A DNA stretch of 64,000 nucleotides, from positions 1-64,000 of the forward strand of contig JACPIQ010000025.1 of NCBI GenBank assembly GCA_016188005.1, read 5' to 3'. Below are positions 2,360-39,558 of the stretch, one piece after another (the first letter of the stretch is position 1; each line of letters starts with the position of its first letter). The position numbers were made by a program, and so were the translations under genes. A model generated the notes under the pieces. It worked only from the letters and a program-made list of their open reading frames with translations. It was not told where the DNA came from and did no database searches. Origin of the DNA: Candidatus Rokuibacteriota bacterium. Its GTDB lineage: Bacteria; Methylomirabilota; Methylomirabilia; Rokubacteriales; CSP1-6.

Positions 2360-2376
2360 GGACGCGATTATCCCAC

Positions 2377-2448
2377 GGGGGTCAGGTCTTGCAATCCGAC
2401 ACGCAGCCCAACCGATGGCCCCGATGTCGTAATGCAAGACCTGACCCC
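2377..2448. repeat. Palindromic REP/MITE-like element, copy 1 (GGGGTCAGGTCTTGCAA ... TTGCAAGACCTGACCCC with a variable loop).
   Basis: It has a perfect 16-17 bp terminal inverted repeat. A second copy with identical arms and a different loop lies at 23557..23620. Copy 1 sits between the cyclase stop (2456) and the ade start (2359). Confidence 0.75.
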
Positions 2449-2455
2449 TGCTTGA

Positions 2456-3547
2456 CTACTTGAGGGCAAGGACGTTGAAGGCGGGGACGGGCCGCGAGAA
2501 GCCCCTGAGGGCGAGATCGCCGGCGGGCTCGGCCTCGACCAGCGAGTCCACGCCCGCCAGCACCCGGCGCGGGACGAGGATCTGGCCCGGCCGAGCCTCT
2601 CCGCAGAGACGGGCGGCGAGATTGGTGACCGTGCCGATGGCACCGTAGTCCCAGCGCCCCTCGAAGCCGATGGCGCCAATCGTGGCATAGCCCTGGGCGA
2701 TGCCGATGCCGAAGTCGAGCTCGTACCCCTGGCGGCGCCACGTGACGATCAGCTCGGCGACACGCTCGCGCATGGCCACTGCCATGCGTACGGCCCGCGC
2801 CGCGGGATCGGGTACGGGCACCGGGTCGTTGAAGAAGATCATCATGCCGTCGCCGGTGAAGCGCTCGAGCGTCCCCTCGTGGGCCAGGATCAGCCGCCCC
2901 ATCTCGGCGTGGTACTCGCGCAGCACCCCCATCACCTCCTCGGGCTCGGCCGTCTCGGCGAAGGCCGTGAAGCCGCGGAGGTCCAGGAAGACCACGGTGA
3001 CCTCCCTCCGGTGGCTCTGGAGCGGATCGGCGGCATCCCCCGCCACGATGAGCTCGGCCAGCTGGGGGGAGAAGAAGCGCTTGAGCCGGCCGAGGCGCTC
3101 GAGCTGGGCCACCTGCTGGCGCACGCGCTCCTCCAGCGTCCGGTTCGACTCGGCGAGCTGGTCGTGGAGCGCCTTGATGCGCAGGAGCGAGCGCACCCGC
3201 GCCAGCAGCTCGGCGTGATTCACCGGCTTCGTGAGGAAGTCGTCGGCTCCGGCATCGAGGCCCTTGATCCGCTCCTGCGCCGGGTCCAGCGCCGTGACCA
3301 TCACCACGGGGAGCATGGCCGTCGCGGGATCCTCGCGGATCGCGCGGCAGACCTCGTAGCCACTCATCTCCGGCATCATGACGTCCAGCAGCACGAGATC
3401 GGGACGGTCGGCCGTGACCCTGTCGAGGGCCTCGCGCCCGGAGGCCGCCGTCGCCACCGCGTAGCCCTTCACCGCCAGCAGGTCGGCCAGGAGCTTCACG
3501 TTGTGCGGCGTGTCGTCCACCACCAGGATGCGGGCGGGGTGAGTCAC
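2456..3547 (-). CDS. Response-regulator receiver domain fused to a class III adenylate/guanylate cyclase (REC-CHD).
   Basis: It has an N-terminal REC domain (ILVVDDTPHNVKLLADLL...DLVLLDVMMPEMSGYEV with a phospho-acceptor Asp context). The C-terminus has cyclase-homology-domain hallmarks (VTVVFLDLRGFTAFAE, FTGDGMMIFFN, GTVTNLAARL). It overlaps the upstream RR gene by 4 nt. Confidence 0.85.
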   Translation of the reverse strand: MTHPARILVVDDTPHNVKLLADLLAVKGYAVATAASGREALDRVTADRPDLVLLDVMMPEMSGYEVCRAIREDPATAMLPVVMVTALDPAQERIKGLDAGADDFLTKPVNHAELLARVRSLLRIKALHDQLAESNRTLEERVRQQVAQLERLGRLKRFFSPQLAELIVAGDAADPLQSHRREVTVVFLDLRGFTAFAETAEPEEVMGVLREYHAEMGRLILAHEGTLERFTGDGMMIFFNDPVPVPDPAARAVRMAVAMRERVAELIVTWRRQGYELDFGIGIAQGYATIGAIGFEGRWDYGAIGTVTNLAARLCGEARPGQILVPRRVLAGVDSLVEAEPAGDLALRGFSRPVPAFNVLALK

Positions 3548-3939
3548 GCCCCGCCTCCGGCGCCGCGGCTCCGGTCCAGCAGATCGCGCACGGCCTGGAG
3601 GAACTCCTTCACGTTGATGGGCTTGGACTGATAACCGTCGAACCCCGCGGCCATGATCTTCTGCCGGTCGTGCGTCATGGCCGAGGCCGTCACTGCCATG
3701 ACAGGGATCGCGCCCGTCCGCGGATCGGCCCGGAGCCGCCCCAGCGCCTCGATGCCGCTCATCCCCGGCAGCTGGATGTCCATGAGGATCAGCGCCGGCT
3801 GCTCCGCCTGCGCCAGCCGGAGACCCTCCTCCGCGGTGTCGCTCTCGATGGTGCGGTAGCCCTTGAACTGCAGGACGTCGCGGGCGAGCCTGCGGTTCCT
3901 CTCGTTGTCCTCGACGATCAGGATCAGCTCACTGGCCAT
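3544..3939 (-). CDS. Single-domain response regulator (CheY-like receiver).
   Basis: 131 aa. It carries LILIVEDNERNRRLARDVL...LILMDIQLPGMSGIEAL...KP receiver motifs. It is translationally coupled between the kinase and the REC-cyclase. Confidence 0.85.
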   Translation of the reverse strand: MASELILIVEDNERNRRLARDVLQFKGYRTIESDTAEEGLRLAQAEQPALILMDIQLPGMSGIEALGRLRADPRTGAIPVMAVTASAMTHDRQKIMAAGFDGYQSKPINVKEFLQAVRDLLDRSRGAGGGA

Positions 3940-16447: not shown

Positions 16448-16766
16448 TCGCCGGGCGCGGGCGGGCGATAGCCCGGGTGCCCGCCAGGGGAAAACGGGAC
16501 TCCCGCAGCGCGATCGAGCAGCCACACGCCGTGTTCCGGCGGGCGCGGGCGGGCGATAGCCCGGGTGCCCGCCAGGGGAAAACGGGACTCCCGCAGCGCG
16601 ATCGAGCAGCCACACGCAGTGTTCCGGCGGGCGCGGGCGGGCGATAGCCCGGGTGCCCGCCAGGGGAAAACGGCAGGGGAAAACGGGACTCCCGCAGCGC
16701 GATCGAGCAGCCACACGCAGTGTTCCGGCGGGCGCGGGCGGGCGATAGCCCGGGTGCCCGCGCCTG
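16448..16766. repeat. Tandem array of ~88-bp units (3 full copies plus a truncated fourth; copy 3 carries an internal 14-bp duplication) filling the whole rluA-SDR intergenic region.
   Basis: Seen directly: CGGCGGGCGCGGGCGGGCGATAGCCCGGGTGCCCGCCAGGGGAAAACGGGACTCCCGCAGCGCGATCGAGCAGCCACACGC(A/C)GTGTTC repeated head-to-tail. The last partial copy runs into CCTGGTGAAGGAGG and then the ATG of the SDR gene. Each unit contains a GC-rich hairpin (GCGGGC GGGC GAUA GCCC GGGU GCCCGC). Confidence 0.85.
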
Positions 16767-16781
16767 GTGAAGGAGGCTTCC

Positions 16782-21652: not shown

Positions 21653-21841
21653 CGGGGGTGACGGCGCCTGAGATCGCGCGAGGAGACCCGCCCAGCGCAA
21701 CCATCCGGCGGGGGCGGGCGTGGCGACAGCCCGGGTGCCCGCCCCTGTGGGGGTGACAGCACCTGAGATCGCGCGAGGAGACCCGCCCAGCGCAACCATC
21801 CGGCGGGGGCGGGCGTGGCGACAGCCCGGGTGCCCGCCCCT
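21653..21841. repeat. Tandem array of two ~96-bp units immediately upstream of the LLM oxidoreductase gene. The 3' module is homologous to the 16448..16766 repeat units.
   Basis: GGGGGTGAC(G/A)GC(G/A)CCTGAGATCGCGCGAGGAGACCCGCCCAGCGCAACCATCCGGCGGGGGCGGGCGTGGCGACAGCCCGGGTGCCCGCCCCTG occurs twice, followed by GTGAAGGAGCCATCGCATG. Each unit contains a 9-bp GC stem (GGGGCGGGC ... GCCCGCCCC). Confidence 0.85.
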
Positions 21842-21858
21842 GGTGAAGGAGCCATCGC

Positions 21859-22819: not shown

Positions 22820-23557
22820 ATGGCTGCCATGCCTGCAGGGGATGCGATCGTCGCGCTGGTCACCCTCACCGCCATGGAGATCGTGCTCGGCATCGACAAC
22901 GTCGTCTTCATCGCCATCCTGACGGGACGGCTGCCGACGGGCCAGCAGGCCCTGGCCCGTCGGCTCGGCCTCGCGCTGGCGCTGGTGATCCGGATCGGTC
23001 TCCTCTTCGCCATCTCGTGGATGATGGGCCTGACGGCCCCCTTCGTCTCCGTCCTCGGCCATCCCGTATCGGGGCGCGACCTGATCCTCCTGGGGGGCGG
23101 CCTCTTCCTGATCGGGAAGGCCACCTGGGAGGTCTACGACAAGCTGGAGGCCGAGCACGTCGAGACCGCGTCGGCCGGGCAGCGGACAGCCTTGCTGTGG
23201 GTCCTCGCGCAGATCCTCCTCCTCGACATCGTCTTCTCGCTCGATTCGGTGATCACGGCGGTGGGCATGGCCAGCCAGGTCTCCATCATGGTGGTCGCCA
23301 TGGTCCTCGCCATGCTGGTGATGCTCGTCTCCGCCGGCCCCATCGGCGGCTTCGTCGAGCGCCACCCGAGCGTGAAGATCCTGGCGCTGGCCTTCCTCCT
23401 GCTCATCGGCGTGATGCTGGTGGCCGAGGGGATGGGTACCCACGTGGAGAAGGGCTACCTCTACTTCGCCATGGCCTTCTCGCTCTTCGTGGAGCTGCTG
23501 AACCTGCGCTACCGCGCCAAGCGCCGGCCGCTGCCCCTCCACCACCGCTTCGAGTAG
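22820..23557 (+). CDS. TerC-family integral membrane protein.
   Basis: EIVLGIDNVVFIAIL... and LLLDIVFSLDSVITAVGM are duplicated TerC motifs. It is polytopic. Confidence 0.8.
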   Translation: MAAMPAGDAIVALVTLTAMEIVLGIDNVVFIAILTGRLPTGQQALARRLGLALALVIRIGLLFAISWMMGLTAPFVSVLGHPVSGRDLILLGGGLFLIGKATWEVYDKLEAEHVETASAGQRTALLWVLAQILLLDIVFSLDSVITAVGMASQVSIMVVAMVLAMLVMLVSAGPIGGFVERHPSVKILALAFLLLIGVMLVAEGMGTHVEKGYLYFAMAFSLFVELLNLRYRAKRRPLPLHHRFE

Positions 23558-23620
23558 GGGGTCAGGTCTTGCAAACCGACACGTCACCCTGACCGATGTC
23601 GTAATGCAAGACCTGACCCC
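23557..23620. repeat. Palindromic REP/MITE-like element, copy 2.
   Basis: GGGGTCAGGTCTTGCAAACCGACACG...CCGATGTCGTAATGCAAGACCTGACCCC. The arms are identical to copy 1 at 2377..2448 and the loop differs. It lies exactly between the convergent terC and HAD gene ends. Confidence 0.75.
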
Positions 23621-24402
23621 TACGAGAGGAGGCGGCGGAGCTGGGCCATGGACTTCACGACGAAGTGCGCGACGCCGTCGAGACCGCCGTCGGGGGCGAA
23701 GAGGATGGCCGTCATCCCCACGCGGCGGGCGCCGCGGATGTCGGAGTCCACGCTGTCCCCCACCATGGCGGCCTCCTCGGCGCGCACCCTCATACGCTGA
23801 AGCGCCAGCTCGAAGAGCGGCGGCTCGGGCTTGCCGATCACGACGGGGCGGGCGCCCGCCGCCGCCGCCACCGATTCCGCCACCGCCCCGCAGCCGGGGA
23901 GGAAGTCGCCGCCCTCGAGCGGCAGCCGCGGGTCGAGGTTCGCCGTGACGAAGGCCGCGCCGCCCGCGATCGCGCGAGCGGCGGCCGTCAGCCGCTCGAA
24001 GCTGAACGCGAAGTCGTTGCCCACCACGACCACCGTGGCCTCGCCGTAGCGGTCCATGGGCACCAGCGTGTGGCCGCCGTCCCGCACCGCCGCCTCGAGC
24101 TCGGGGCCCCCGATGGCGAGCACCCGCGACGCCCCCCAGCGCGCGGCGATCACCTGGCCGAGGATCTCGAGCGGCGTGAGGACGTCTTCCACCGCGGCCT
24201 CGACGCCCAGGCGCGCGAGCTTGGCGTGCATGGTGGCTGACCGCGCCCGCGAGTTGTTGGTGAGGAAGGACACCGCCCGCCCCTGCGCTCTCAGGAGGGC
24301 CAGCACCTCGGCCGCTCCCGGCACGAGGATGTCGCCCGTCCACACACAGCCGTCCAGATCGAAGACGAAGCCGCGCAGCGCGCGCAGCTCCCGGCGCGAC
24401 AT
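23620..24402 (-). CDS. HAD-IIA family hydrolase (NagD/pNPPase-like sugar-phosphate phosphatase).
   Basis: Motif I FVFDLDGCVW, motif II SFLTNNS, and C-terminal KPEPPLF...MVGDSVDSDIRGARRVG (motifs III/IV). It is the C-terminal 260 aa of track ORF 23620..25107 -. Confidence 0.8.
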   Translation of the reverse strand: MSRRELRALRGFVFDLDGCVWTGDILVPGAAEVLALLRAQGRAVSFLTNNSRARSATMHAKLARLGVEAAVEDVLTPLEILGQVIAARWGASRVLAIGGPELEAAVRDGGHTLVPMDRYGEATVVVVGNDFAFSFERLTAAARAIAGGAAFVTANLDPRLPLEGGDFLPGCGAVAESVAAAAGARPVVIGKPEPPLFELALQRMRVRAEEAAMVGDSVDSDIRGARRVGMTAILFAPDGGLDGVAHFVVKSMAQLRRLLS

Positions 24403-37557: not shown

Positions 37558-39558
37558 TCAGCGACGGCGGAGGCGCCGCCGCGCCGCCTCGAGCGCGTGA
37601 CGGAACCGGGAATCATCGGGGCGCAGCCGCAGCGCCTCCGCGTAGGCGGCAGCGGCCTCGTCGAGCCGCCTGAGCCGGACGAGCACCGCACCCAGGCGGG
37701 CGTGGGCCTCGGCGTGATCGGGCTTGACGCGGATCGCCTCGCGATAGGCCACCTCGCACTCGGCGTGCTTGCCTTGCCGCTCGAGCACCGTCCACAGGTT
37801 GAAATGATTCTGCGCCTCGGCCGGGCGCAGGCGGAGCGCCTCGCGATAGGCGGCCTCGGCCTCGGCATGGAGCCCCTGGGCCAGGAGCACGCCGCCGAGA
37901 CCGCGGTACGCCGACGGGCTGTCGGGCTTGGCGGCGATGGCGGCGCGGAAGGCCTCCGCCGCTTCCGCGGGCCGCCCCTGCTCGCTCAGGAGCTCGCCAA
38001 GATAGCTGTGGGTGCGCGCGAAGCCGGGCTTGAGGTGGGCCGCCTCGCGCAGCGCCGCCTCCGCCGCCGCGTACTTGCCCTGGAAGTACAGGACCACGCC
38101 GAGCCCCCGATGCAGCGCGGCGCCCCCGGGCTTGACGCGCAGGGCCTCGCGGTACACCGCCTCGGACTGCGCGTAGCGCCCCTGGCGGCCGAGGCCGACG
38201 GCGAGATTGCCGAGGGCGACCACATTCGTCGGGGCGAGCCGGACGGCCTCGCGCAGCGCCGCCTCCGCCTCGGCATGCTTGCCCTGCCGCCCGAGCGCGA
38301 TGCCCAGCTCCACGTGGTGATCGGCATCGCCCGGCGCCAGGGCCACCGCGGCGCGGAAGGCCGCTTCCGCCTCGGCGTCGAGCCCCTGGGCCGACAGCGC
38401 GAGCCCCAGATCGTAATGCAGCTCCGGATCGTCAGGACACAGGCGCAGCGCCCGGCGGTAGGTGTCGGCCTCCTCGGCCCAGCGGCTCTCCCGCCGGAGC
38501 ACCGCGGCCAGTCCCAGGTGGGTCGCGAGGTCCTCGGGGTGCAGACGGATCGCCTCCCGGAACGCCAGCGCGGCGGCGGCGAAATGCCCCTGGTGCTCGA
38601 GGACGCGGCCCAGGCGACCGTGCCACGCCGCGTTGCCAGGCTCGAGCCGGATCGCTTCCCGCAAGGCGGCCGCGGCCTCGCCGTGACGGCGCAGACGCCA
38701 GAGGACGACGCCCAGGCGGCCGTGGAGCGCGGCGACCGAGCCGCGGAGGCGGATGGCCTCGCGATAGGCGGCGGCGGCCGCACGCCAACGGCGCTGACGG
38801 CGCAGCACGCCGGCCAGGTGCGCGCGCGCCCTGGCAGAGGTGGGCGCGAGCCTGACGGCCTCGGCGAGCGCCACCGCCGCCTCGGCGTGCTTTCCCTGGG
38901 CGGCCAGGACCATCCCGAGCCCGTCGTGGACGTGGGGGTTCCGCGGCGCGAGCCTCGCCGCTTCCCTGAAGGCCGTCTCGGCCTCGAGGCGCAGGCCGCG
39001 GCGCGCAAGCGCGATGCCGAGGTTCTGTTGCGCCTCGGCGTGGCCAGGCGCCAGCCGCACGGCGTCGCGCAGCGCCTGCTCCTCGTCGGCGTACCTGCCC
39101 TGCCGCCGGCACATGAGGCCCAGCCGGAGAGGCACGAGAGGATGATCGGGCCTGAGCACCGCGGCCGCATGGTACGCCGCCTCGGCCTCGGCCCAGCGCC
39201 GCTGCCGCTCCAGCGCCAGCCCGAGCTTGAAGTGCCCCCTGAAGGCCTGCGGCGCCTGCGCCACCGCCTCGCGGTACTCGGCTTCCGCCTCGACCGGGCG
39301 CCCCTGCTCCAGGAGCGCATCGCCCAGGTCCACGCGCGCCGCGGCGGCCCGCGGCGAGAGGCGCACGGCCTCCCGGAAGGCGGCTTCCGCCTCTCGCGTG
39401 CGCCGCTGGCGGGTGAGGGCGGCGCCGAGCCGGGAATAGGCTTCCGCGCGCCGGGGGTCGCCCTCGATCGCGTGACGGCACTGGCGCTCGGCCTCGGCGT
39501 CGCGCCCCTCGCGAAGCGATGCCGCCGCGCGCTGCAGCCAGAGGGTGGTCTCGTCCAC
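37558..39558 (-). CDS. Tetratricopeptide-repeat protein (~19 consecutive 34-aa TPR units).
   Basis: 666 aa made of AEAxxREAxRLxP... units repeated throughout. There is no other domain. Confidence 0.8.
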   Translation of the reverse strand: MDETTLWLQRAAASLREGRDAEAERQCRHAIEGDPRRAEAYSRLGAALTRQRRTREAEAAFREAVRLSPRAAAARVDLGDALLEQGRPVEAEAEYREAVAQAPQAFRGHFKLGLALERQRRWAEAEAAYHAAAVLRPDHPLVPLRLGLMCRRQGRYADEEQALRDAVRLAPGHAEAQQNLGIALARRGLRLEAETAFREAARLAPRNPHVHDGLGMVLAAQGKHAEAAVALAEAVRLAPTSARARAHLAGVLRRQRRWRAAAAAYREAIRLRGSVAALHGRLGVVLWRLRRHGEAAAALREAIRLEPGNAAWHGRLGRVLEHQGHFAAAALAFREAIRLHPEDLATHLGLAAVLRRESRWAEEADTYRRALRLCPDDPELHYDLGLALSAQGLDAEAEAAFRAAVALAPGDADHHVELGIALGRQGKHAEAEAALREAVRLAPTNVVALGNLAVGLGRQGRYAQSEAVYREALRVKPGGAALHRGLGVVLYFQGKYAAAEAALREAAHLKPGFARTHSYLGELLSEQGRPAEAAEAFRAAIAAKPDSPSAYRGLGGVLLAQGLHAEAEAAYREALRLRPAEAQNHFNLWTVLERQGKHAECEVAYREAIRVKPDHAEAHARLGAVLVRLRRLDEAAAAYAEALRLRPDDSRFRHALEAARRRLRRR

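Follow-up and report, generated by a model that had tools for sequence, protein, structure and literature searches.

Two hairpin elements in a Rokubacterial contig are probably transposase-less dimers of TIRtron terminal inverted repeats

What are the two palindromes found at gene ends in contig JACPIQ010000025.1 of a Candidatus Rokuibacteriota bacterium (assembly GCA_016188005.1)? The stretch analysed, positions 1 to 64,000 of that contig (the window), has a GC content of about 72%. One palindrome (copy 1) lies between a response-regulator/nucleotide cyclase gene and an adenine deaminase gene, the other (copy 2) between the genes for TerC and a hydrolase of the HAD family. An original prediction, made from the sequence alone, had described them as an element of the repetitive extragenic palindromic (REP) or bacterial interspersed mosaic element (BIME) type, or else as a non-autonomous miniature inverted-repeat transposable element (MITE). 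They are indeed non-autonomous, dispersed elements, but neither a canonical REP/BIME nor a MITE of the DDE type describes them. Each is probably a dimer of TIRtron terminal inverted repeats that lacks the transposase gene. A TIRtron is a unit of about 900 bp that consists of an arm, a Y1/HUH tyrosine transposase with a C-terminal helix-turn-helix (HTH)-like region (TIRYT, subclass 2.1) and an inverted arm.

Copy 1 occupies 2378-2448 (71 nt) and copy 2 occupies 23558-23620 (63 nt). The right ends are those originally predicted, whereas both left ends lie one base further in, because a fifth G precedes each element. The 16-mer GGGGTCAGGTCTTGCA occurs exactly four times in the window, at 2378-2393 (+), 2433-2448 (-), 23558-23573 (+) and 23605-23620 (-), and each copy is one inverted pair of it, that is, a perfect 16-bp terminal inverted repeat. 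With 0.57 matches expected by chance in the shuffled window and four reached in none of 100 shuffles, the two predicted palindromes are real. Identity of arms of about 26-30 bp had also been proposed, and it holds for the right arms, CCGATGTCGTAATGCAAGACCTGACCCC, of 28 nt. Between the left arms, of 26 nt, there is a single difference, at position 18 (T vs A), as had already been indicated. The interiors, or "loops", do differ in sequence and length, but measure 17 nt in copy 1 and 9 nt in copy 2 rather than 20 and 11. No further degenerate arm was detected in the window when up to six mismatches were allowed.

Both copies are predicted to fold into long RNA hairpins on either strand (-41 to -52 kcal/mol, z -8.5 to -10). 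As single-stranded DNA, copy 1 folds at -26.1 and copy 2 at -25.3 kcal/mol (z -8.5 and -9.0). A single arm on its own remains at the level of shuffled sequence (0 and -1.8 kcal/mol, z about 0), compared with z of about -9 for the dimers.

The arm is widespread. In one scan of 185,579 species genomes with GGGGTCAGGTCTTGCANNNCGACA as the query, it was found exact in at least 120 loci, on contigs whose GC content ranges from 0.40 to 0.74; the element is thus independent of host composition. The matches extend to many phyla. Among the matches listed, and judged by record titles, 26 loci (10 genome bins) belong to Rokubacteria and 13 to Methylomirabilota. The same matches include 27 loci in Thermoleophilia, Gaiellales, Solirubrobacterales and other Actinomycetota. 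Nitrospirota and many Proteobacteria (Magnetococcales, Gallionellales, Rhodocyclales, Zetaproteobacteria and others) are represented as well, together with Elusimicrobia, Chloroflexota, Gemmatimonadota, Planctomycetota, Bacillota, Caldisericota and more. Two of the listed matches are isolates, Lamprocystis purpurea DSM 4197 and Methylophilus medardicus MMS-M-51. Several contigs of one genome bin can carry arms (e.g., MGBV01 and JACPCX01), and the arms occur as singles, dimers and clusters, with two dimers in the window. Three loci (L030, L071 and L082) labelled Nitrosotalea sp. SMAG_U15217 have 71% GC and Rokubacteria-type elements under the name of an archaeal genus. These contigs are probably mis-binned, and for that reason the archaeal labels were given no weight.

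Such a distribution bears on the simplest account of the pair, a chance product of local segmental duplication, which the original prediction had named as the case that would overturn it. There are only two copies in the window, as a duplication would leave, but their flanks are unrelated, at least 120 other, unrelated loci have the arm, and each copy has its own ortholog with a longer form of the element. A local duplication is excluded on these grounds and keeps next to no probability.

Across loci the consensus of the arm is GGGGTCAGGTCTTGCA-TT(A/C/G)-CGACA-TTT. Conservation stops sharply at the outer G; about 76% of arms have a pyrimidine at position -1, and over 178 arms positions -4 to -1 are unconserved, with no GTAG or other tag. 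An inverted partner lies within 170 nt for 68% of 139 arms, and the 16-mer of 81 of these 95 partners has no more than one mismatch. Non-redundant dimers in which both 16-mers are exact number 40 and measure 47-148 nt. In 16 of them the two arms have the same variable triplet (positions 17-19), where 6.7 such cases are expected, which indicates that dimers come from matched ends.

In other genomes the arm is the terminal repeat of units that encode a Y1 transposase. In several loci it stands about 48 nt upstream of an open reading frame (ORF) that starts MARPLRIEY.GAVYHVTSRGN, the distance to the TIRYT ATG in L020, L077, L095 and L108. The unit is complete in L018, a Nitrospira metagenome-assembled genome, where it spans 2604-3505 and comprises a left arm, an ORF of 278 amino acids and a right arm overlapping the stop codon. 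Two arms about 890-910 bp apart are also present in L105 (Methylophilus medardicus) and in L050 (Solirubrobacterales), where the gene is frameshifted. Directly after the right arm of L018, at 3539-3794, there is a second TIRYT fragment, 5'-truncated, frameshifted and about 80% identical to the intact copy; it looks like a nested or tandem insertion.

The L018-type protein matches Pfam Y1_Tnp (1.6e-13), and the HYH and WSSY motifs are visible in its sequence. It scores 89.6 bits against the NCBIfam model for the REP-associated tyrosine transposase (REP_Tyr_transpos, cut-off 80), so that the predicted link to transposases of the RAYT type is borne out at the level of the unit that the arms bound; mobilisation of the window copies by such an enzyme would follow by extension. 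Residues 236-275 match HTH_23, Sigma70_r4_2 and HTH_38 with E values of 4e-5 to 7e-5, just under the Pfam gathering scores. More than 8000 relatives are found at E <= 1e-10, many of them annotated "REP element-mobilizing transposase RayT". TIRYT proteins beside identical arms are only 38-63% identical to one another, and the arm must therefore be under far stronger constraint than the protein.

Units of this kind have been described, though seldom. Di Nocera et al. 2013 (PMC3733652) reported RAYT-like genes whose flanks are long terminal inverted repeats rather than REPs, and named the units TIRtrons and the enzymes TIRYTs. In their account the repeats share the motif GGGGWSAS and form dispersed families of single, dimeric or grouped copies. 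Quentin et al. 2018 (PMC6006769) placed 20 of 26 TIRYTs in TnpA_REP subclass 2.1, whose C-terminal domains are HTH or DnaA_C-like, and reported no REP-like repeats around subclass 2.1 genes. In the literature searched, the names TIRYT and TIRtron are used only in these two papers.

All four window arms open with GGGGTCAG, which conforms to GGGGWSAS, and the same arms bound TIRYT units elsewhere; the window elements can therefore be assigned to the TIRtron class as arm dimers. The likeness to the published units extends to the inverted arms around a RAYT-like Y1 transposase, here with a putative C-terminal HTH-type region, to the overlap of the downstream arm with the gene end, and to the dispersed singles, dimers and groups. 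There are also differences. The present arm of about 24-27 nt appeared in no paper in a full-text literature search and is absent from the supplements of Di Nocera et al. It spans Rokubacteria, Methylomirabilota, Thermoleophilia, Nitrospirota, many Proteobacteria and others, and its association with gene ends and TAG is not described in the available parts of PMC3733652 and PMC6006769. As noted, Quentin et al. found no REP-like repeats around genes of this subclass.

Could the elements still be canonical REPs, each an imperfect palindrome of 20-40 nt with a GTAG (or CGTC) tag at one end, arranged as a BIME or REPIN doublet for a classical RAYT to process? A hairpin-forming doublet at gene ends would suit this account, as would a partner protein that passes REP_Tyr_transpos, and copy 2 happens to have GTAG on both sides. 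That GTAG is a pair of stop codons, however, and the positions where a tag would stand are unconserved among the 178 arms. The single arm is not self-complementary, as the folding energies of arm and dimer demonstrate, and it opens with the TIRYT motif. The partner has a putative C-terminal HTH-like extension (by sub-threshold HTH matches) of the kind seen in subclass 2.1, for which Quentin et al. found no REPs. Because the single arm is non-palindromic and there is no conserved GTAG, the window elements are not taken as canonical REP/BIMEs, an origin that we rate as improbable.

The resemblance to REPINs and RAYTs (Bertels & Rainey 2011; PMC3337134, PMC5581495) is nonetheless considerable. 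In both cases two inverted units and a variable spacer make a hairpin, the element is non-autonomous and would presumably owe its mobility to a usually single-copy Y1 transposase acting in trans, and copies persist vertically at orthologous sites. Since the present arms are neither palindromic REPs nor associated with GTAG, the REPIN architecture is matched by analogy only. Populations of REPINs are described as lineage-specific and vertically inherited (PMC3337134, PMC5581495), whereas the present arm is common to many phyla.

The lack of a target-site duplication separates the window elements from another class of mobile DNA. A classical MITE derived from an insertion sequence with a DDE transposase, for example an IS630/Tc1-like element with TA duplication, would be short and non-coding with perfect terminal inverted repeats, as these are, and copy 2 has TA at both ends. 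In the 40 dimers, however, the direct identity of the flanks is at chance, with 7, 4, 1 and 0 cases for k = 1-4 against about 12, 3.6, 1.1 and 0.3 expected. Comparison of the empty and filled site of copy 1 likewise revealed no duplication, its insertion being reconstructed as TAG^CC. The autonomous units detected between such arms all code for a Y1/HUH protein and not for a DDE enzyme, and no arm-bounded DDE gene was seen among the 120 loci listed. Without target-site duplication the elements cannot be placed among DDE-type MITEs, and such an origin is very unlikely. Like the bacterial MITEs Nezha, RUP and NEMIS/Correia, the present elements are short, non-coding and gene-adjacent, have terminal inverted repeats, and can supply promoter-like hexamers and RNA hairpins; they differ in leaving the target unduplicated and in having a tyrosine (HUH) rather than a DDE enzyme as partner.

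The IS200/IS605 family (IS608, ISDra2 and their miniature derivatives) shares with the present family the Y1/HUH fold (Pfam Y1_Tnp) and insertion without target-site duplication, and by analogy a single-stranded DNA hairpin would be the expected substrate here as well. Its members lack terminal inverted repeats and have unlike hairpins in subterminal position at their two ends, whereas the present ends are perfect inverted repeats. The present transposase reaches only 18.7 bits against the NCBIfam transpos_IS200 model, compared with a cut-off of 55.

The history of the two copies can be followed at orthologous sites. At the site of copy 1, relatives have the genes in the same order (histidine kinase, response regulator, cyclase, adenine deaminase). 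In L201, whose adenine deaminase gene has 92% nucleotide identity, there is no element (CTCAAG-G-CCGTGGCATGATCG), and here the cyclase and adenine deaminase genes overlap (ATGA). In L204 (90%) the site holds a long form of 166 nt, CTCAAGTA[GGGG...CCCC]CGTGGCATAATCG. The window copy has the same right junction as L204 and lacks 79 nt between direct repeats of GGGCTGCG; next to the cyclase gene, 8 nt of its flank have become duplicated (TCAAGTAG / TCAAGCAG). The cyclase/adenine deaminase junction is thus empty, long or short in close relatives, and the elements are discrete units. The more distant, element-free L205 already ends its cyclase gene with CTCAAGTAG. The TAG stop is therefore older than the insertion, and the idea that TAG forms part of the element is ruled out for copy 1.

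For copy 2, L121, a metagenome contig with a TerC 94% identical to that of the window, has a long form of about 142 nt at the same TerC/HAD junction. It is laid out as an arm, about 60 nt, a degenerate arm and an arm, and its right junction (CCCC followed by TACGAGAGG) is the same as that of the window. By alignment, long forms of the L121 type recur in the Rokubacteria genome bins L005, L043, L057 and L064. Window copy 2 corresponds to this long form minus about 80 internal nt. TerC relatives below 82% identity have other neighbours, so that L121 alone is informative for an empty-site comparison. The window copies belong to a Rokubacterial sub-family with a long form of about 140-166 nt. Since the orthologous sites of both copies hold a long form, the alignments identify the differing interiors as remnants of independent internal deletions.

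The reconstructed insertion of copy 2, GAGTAG^CTACGAG, falls precisely where two stop codons abut, and both window sites reconstruct as AGTAG^C. Small changes followed at the edges. The window TerC (23540-23557 vs L121 2830-2866) ends in RFE and a stop, four codons earlier than that of L121 and other relatives, which end in RFEDERR, RFEDEGG and similar sequences; a 9-nt spacer ahead of the arm at the TerC end in L121 is missing in the window. The shortened TerC end and lost spacer indicate that the arm-proximal junctions of both window copies underwent small indels.

Could the hairpins, instead of being mobile DNA, be regulatory structures that evolved in the host, such as a bidirectional terminator, a stabiliser of mRNA 3' ends or a structured RNA? 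Their stems are highly stable on either strand and stand directly after stop codons. Between the window and L204 the arms have 0 of 52 differences, compared with 3 of 19 in the common interior and about 10% in the flanking gene. The arms of L121 have about six changes, and arm conservation at a site is therefore lineage-dependent. Against a host origin, the same arms lie beside unrelated genes in many phyla and bound a transposase gene. No T-tract or intrinsic terminator was found around either copy on either strand, and Rfam at gathering thresholds gave no match in the whole window or in five related loci. The interiors are variable, and the stems are invariant rather than covarying. A purely host-evolved hairpin is accordingly held to be quite unlikely; in a weaker form of the idea, a mobile element may have acquired a secondary host role.

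Several regularities emerge when the TIRtron-type arms are examined as a family. The first is their position at gene ends. In high-GC loci a long ORF ends within -40 to +60 nt of 63 of 117 arms, mostly 0-15 nt off. These stops are 35 TAG, 22 TGA and 6 TAA; with a TAG background of 27%, the binomial p is 2e-6, and the excess remains (p = 0.005) when the counts are halved for orthologous duplicates. In high-GC lineages insertion would seem to occur preferentially just 3' of TAG; such a preference would account for the location at gene ends as well as for the surplus of TAG in GC-rich genomes. The second regularity is stuttering. A partial GGGGTCA lies within 45 nt upstream in 12 of 180 arms (about 1% expected), and 7 of the 12 also duplicate the preceding 8 nt, e.g., gaggccgcGGGGTCAgaggccgcGGGGTCAGG. 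These repeats suggest a recurrent break or joint right after GGGGTCA. Tandem stutters, made of 8-9 nt of flank and the first 7 nt of the arm, are seen upstream of arms in L009, L075, L092, L095, L098 and L038. The third is the matching of triplets within dimers described above. In L035 and L120, which have solo arms, a common GC-rich stretch, GGCACCGGGGTGGCCCCTGCCGGGCGGCCGGAGCGG, lies about 50 nt on; it has no Rfam match and may represent either a different repeat family or a context that insertion favours.

A mechanism can be proposed for the spread of such dimers. IS608 TnpA and E. coli TnpA_REP provide the analogy. Where the DNA is single-stranded, as on the lagging-strand template, the two arms would pair into a stem of 16 bp or more. 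A TIRYT encoded elsewhere in the genome would recognise the hairpin in trans, and would nick and rejoin the DNA at the conserved outer GGGGTCA(G) motif, while its HTH-like domain may bind the duplex stem. The hairpin would then move without duplicating its target, and in high-GC lineages insertion just 3' of TAG would leave copies directly after stop codons.

The features of both copies are collected in Table 1.

Table 1. Coordinates of the two hairpin elements and of adjoining features in the window
Feature	Position	Strand	Basis
Copy 1, 71-nt arm dimer (hairpin), derived from the Rokubacterial long form by internal deletion	2378..2448		Repeat match, folding, ortholog L204
Copy 1 arm, adenine deaminase side, GGGGTCAGGTCTTGCAATCCGACACG	2378..2403	+	Starts GGGGTCAG, fits GGGGWSAS (PMC3733652)
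Copy 1 interior, 17 nt, leftover of long-form interior	2404..2420		Alignments with long forms
Copy 1 arm, cyclase side, minus-strand reading GGGGTCAGGTCTTGCATTACGACATCGG	2421..2448	-	Repeat match
TCAAGCA, most of the 8-nt flank duplication (TCAAGTAG / TCAAGCAG) between cyclase stop and arm	2449..2455	-	Absent in ortholog L204
TAG stop of response-regulator/cyclase gene	2456..2458	-	ORF, Pfam; CTCAAGTAG also in element-free L205
TTGCAA within arm, -35-like hexamer pointing outward to adenine deaminase gene	2389..2394	-	16 nt from GATAAT; putative promoter function
GATAAT, -10-like hexamer in flank, 7 nt ahead of adenine deaminase ATG (2359)	2367..2372	-	Orthologous loci; putative function
Copy 2, 63-nt arm dimer (hairpin), exactly between convergent TerC and HAD stop codons	23558..23620		Repeat match, folding, ortholog L121
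Copy 2 arm, TerC side, GGGGTCAGGTCTTGCAAACCGACACG	23558..23583	+	Repeat match
Copy 2 interior, 9 nt, remnant after deletion of about 80 nt vs L121	23584..23592		Alignment
Copy 2 arm, HAD side, same as corresponding copy 1 arm	23593..23620	-	Repeat match
TAG stop of TerC, abutting arm	23555..23557	+	ORF, Pfam
TAG stop of HAD hydrolase gene, overlapping last base of element	23620..23622	-	ORF, Pfam

The identities of the neighbouring genes come from ORFs and Pfam, and they agree with the original placement of both copies in gene-end junctions (cyclase stop/adenine deaminase start; TerC/HAD stops). Copy 1 begins 7 nt past the TAG of the cyclase gene, and its other end is 18 nt ahead of the adenine deaminase ATG. 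The adenine deaminase has 100% identity to a protein from a Candidatus Rokubacteria metagenome-assembled genome. Copy 2 fills the entire gap between the convergent stops, with a one-base overlap at the HAD side, and would form a strong hairpin (-41 to -44 kcal/mol as RNA) at the 3' ends of both convergent mRNAs.

Copy 1 may have had a local consequence for transcription. All five orthologous loci carry a -10-like hexamer 7 nt ahead of the adenine deaminase start codon (CATAAT in L204, CATGAT in L201 and GATAAT in the other three), a spacing which suggests that the mRNA is leaderless. The element-free L205 and L206 have TTGCAG and TTGCGC, respectively, 17 nt upstream of this hexamer, and in the window and L204 the TTGCAA of the arm lies 16 nt upstream of it. 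It appears from these alignments that the arm of copy 1 took over the -35 position of a putative adenine deaminase promoter. TTGCAA also occurs 16-17 nt ahead of -10-like sequences upstream of TIRYT genes.

Other repeats were seen in the window. Tandem arrays lie directly upstream of two different genes, at 16452-16761 (88/101-nt units, about 3.5 copies, 99-100% identity) and at 21654-21842 (two 95-nt units, 97%). Both end in one and the same GC-rich module, GGCGGGCG..CGA.AGCCCGGGTGCCCGC.CCTGGTGAAGGA, just ahead of the start codon (near 16767 and 21859). Rfam returned no match to the two arrays; the module could be a duplicated 5' untranslated region or operator module. A long series of 102-nt (34-codon) repeats at 37621-39430 lies within a coding region, has the period of TPR-type repeats and is unrelated to the hairpins.

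Several observations weigh against the interpretation of the window elements as TIRtron arm dimers, or against parts of it. No TIRYT gene was detected in the window by six-frame motif search and tblastn. The search for a RAYT gene that had been proposed thus found a REP-type Y1 transposase between the same arms in other genomes but none here, and the same methods found no TIRYT in about 39 Rokubacteria/Methylomirabilota loci among 200 loci. We know of no biochemical study of any TIRYT. A vector for spread between phyla did not come to light, with no match to the arm in IMG/VR viral contigs and none to the whole L018 unit in PLSDB plasmids. Adjacency to TAG concerns only about 15% of arms and is absent in low-GC lineages, where the flank is AAT-like. 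Recognition of the terminal repeats by the HTH domain was doubted by Quentin et al. (PMC6006769). Both copies were inherited from an ancestor shared with relatives of about 90% identity, and so are old and not fresh insertions. The window, L201 and L204 form a near trichotomy (informative sites 11/11/5), and the empty site of L201 may reflect either loss or the ancestral state. Finally, TTGCAA was considered and rejected as a common source of outward hybrid promoters throughout the family. TAnnnT at the right spacing is not enriched, and the promoter idea is for this reason confined to the locus of copy 1.

The window copies themselves are ordinary: decayed, vertically inherited transposon relics. 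The TIRtron/TIRYT class to which they are assigned was known, if little studied, and what stands out here is the end of about 24 nt that is exact across phyla, the association with TAG and the candidate nick site. One wider reading, which is speculative and rather doubtful, would join these features. The GGGGTCAGGTCTTGCA-type TIRtrons would be one ancient, phylum-crossing lineage, in which the end of about 24 nt is kept invariant by the TIRYT while the sequences of that protein drifted apart to about 40-60% identity; in high-GC bacteria their hairpin derivatives would insert site-specifically just 3' of TAG, thus preferentially mark TAG stops, and be retained as gene-end and promoter modules. 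If this were true, the natural substrate of TIRYTs would be defined, and both their nick site (after GGGGTCA) and their target could be predicted.

For annotation, the family accounts for a recurrent, high-scoring gene-end palindrome in Rokubacteria, Methylomirabilota, Thermoleophilia, Nitrospirota and others, which is otherwise open to misreading as a terminator or a novel RNA. It also supplies a compact hairpin, a sharply conserved end, a candidate break point after GGGGTCA and a candidate target 3' of TAG. Together with orthologous sites in empty, long and short states, these substrate features make the mechanism of TIRYTs directly testable.

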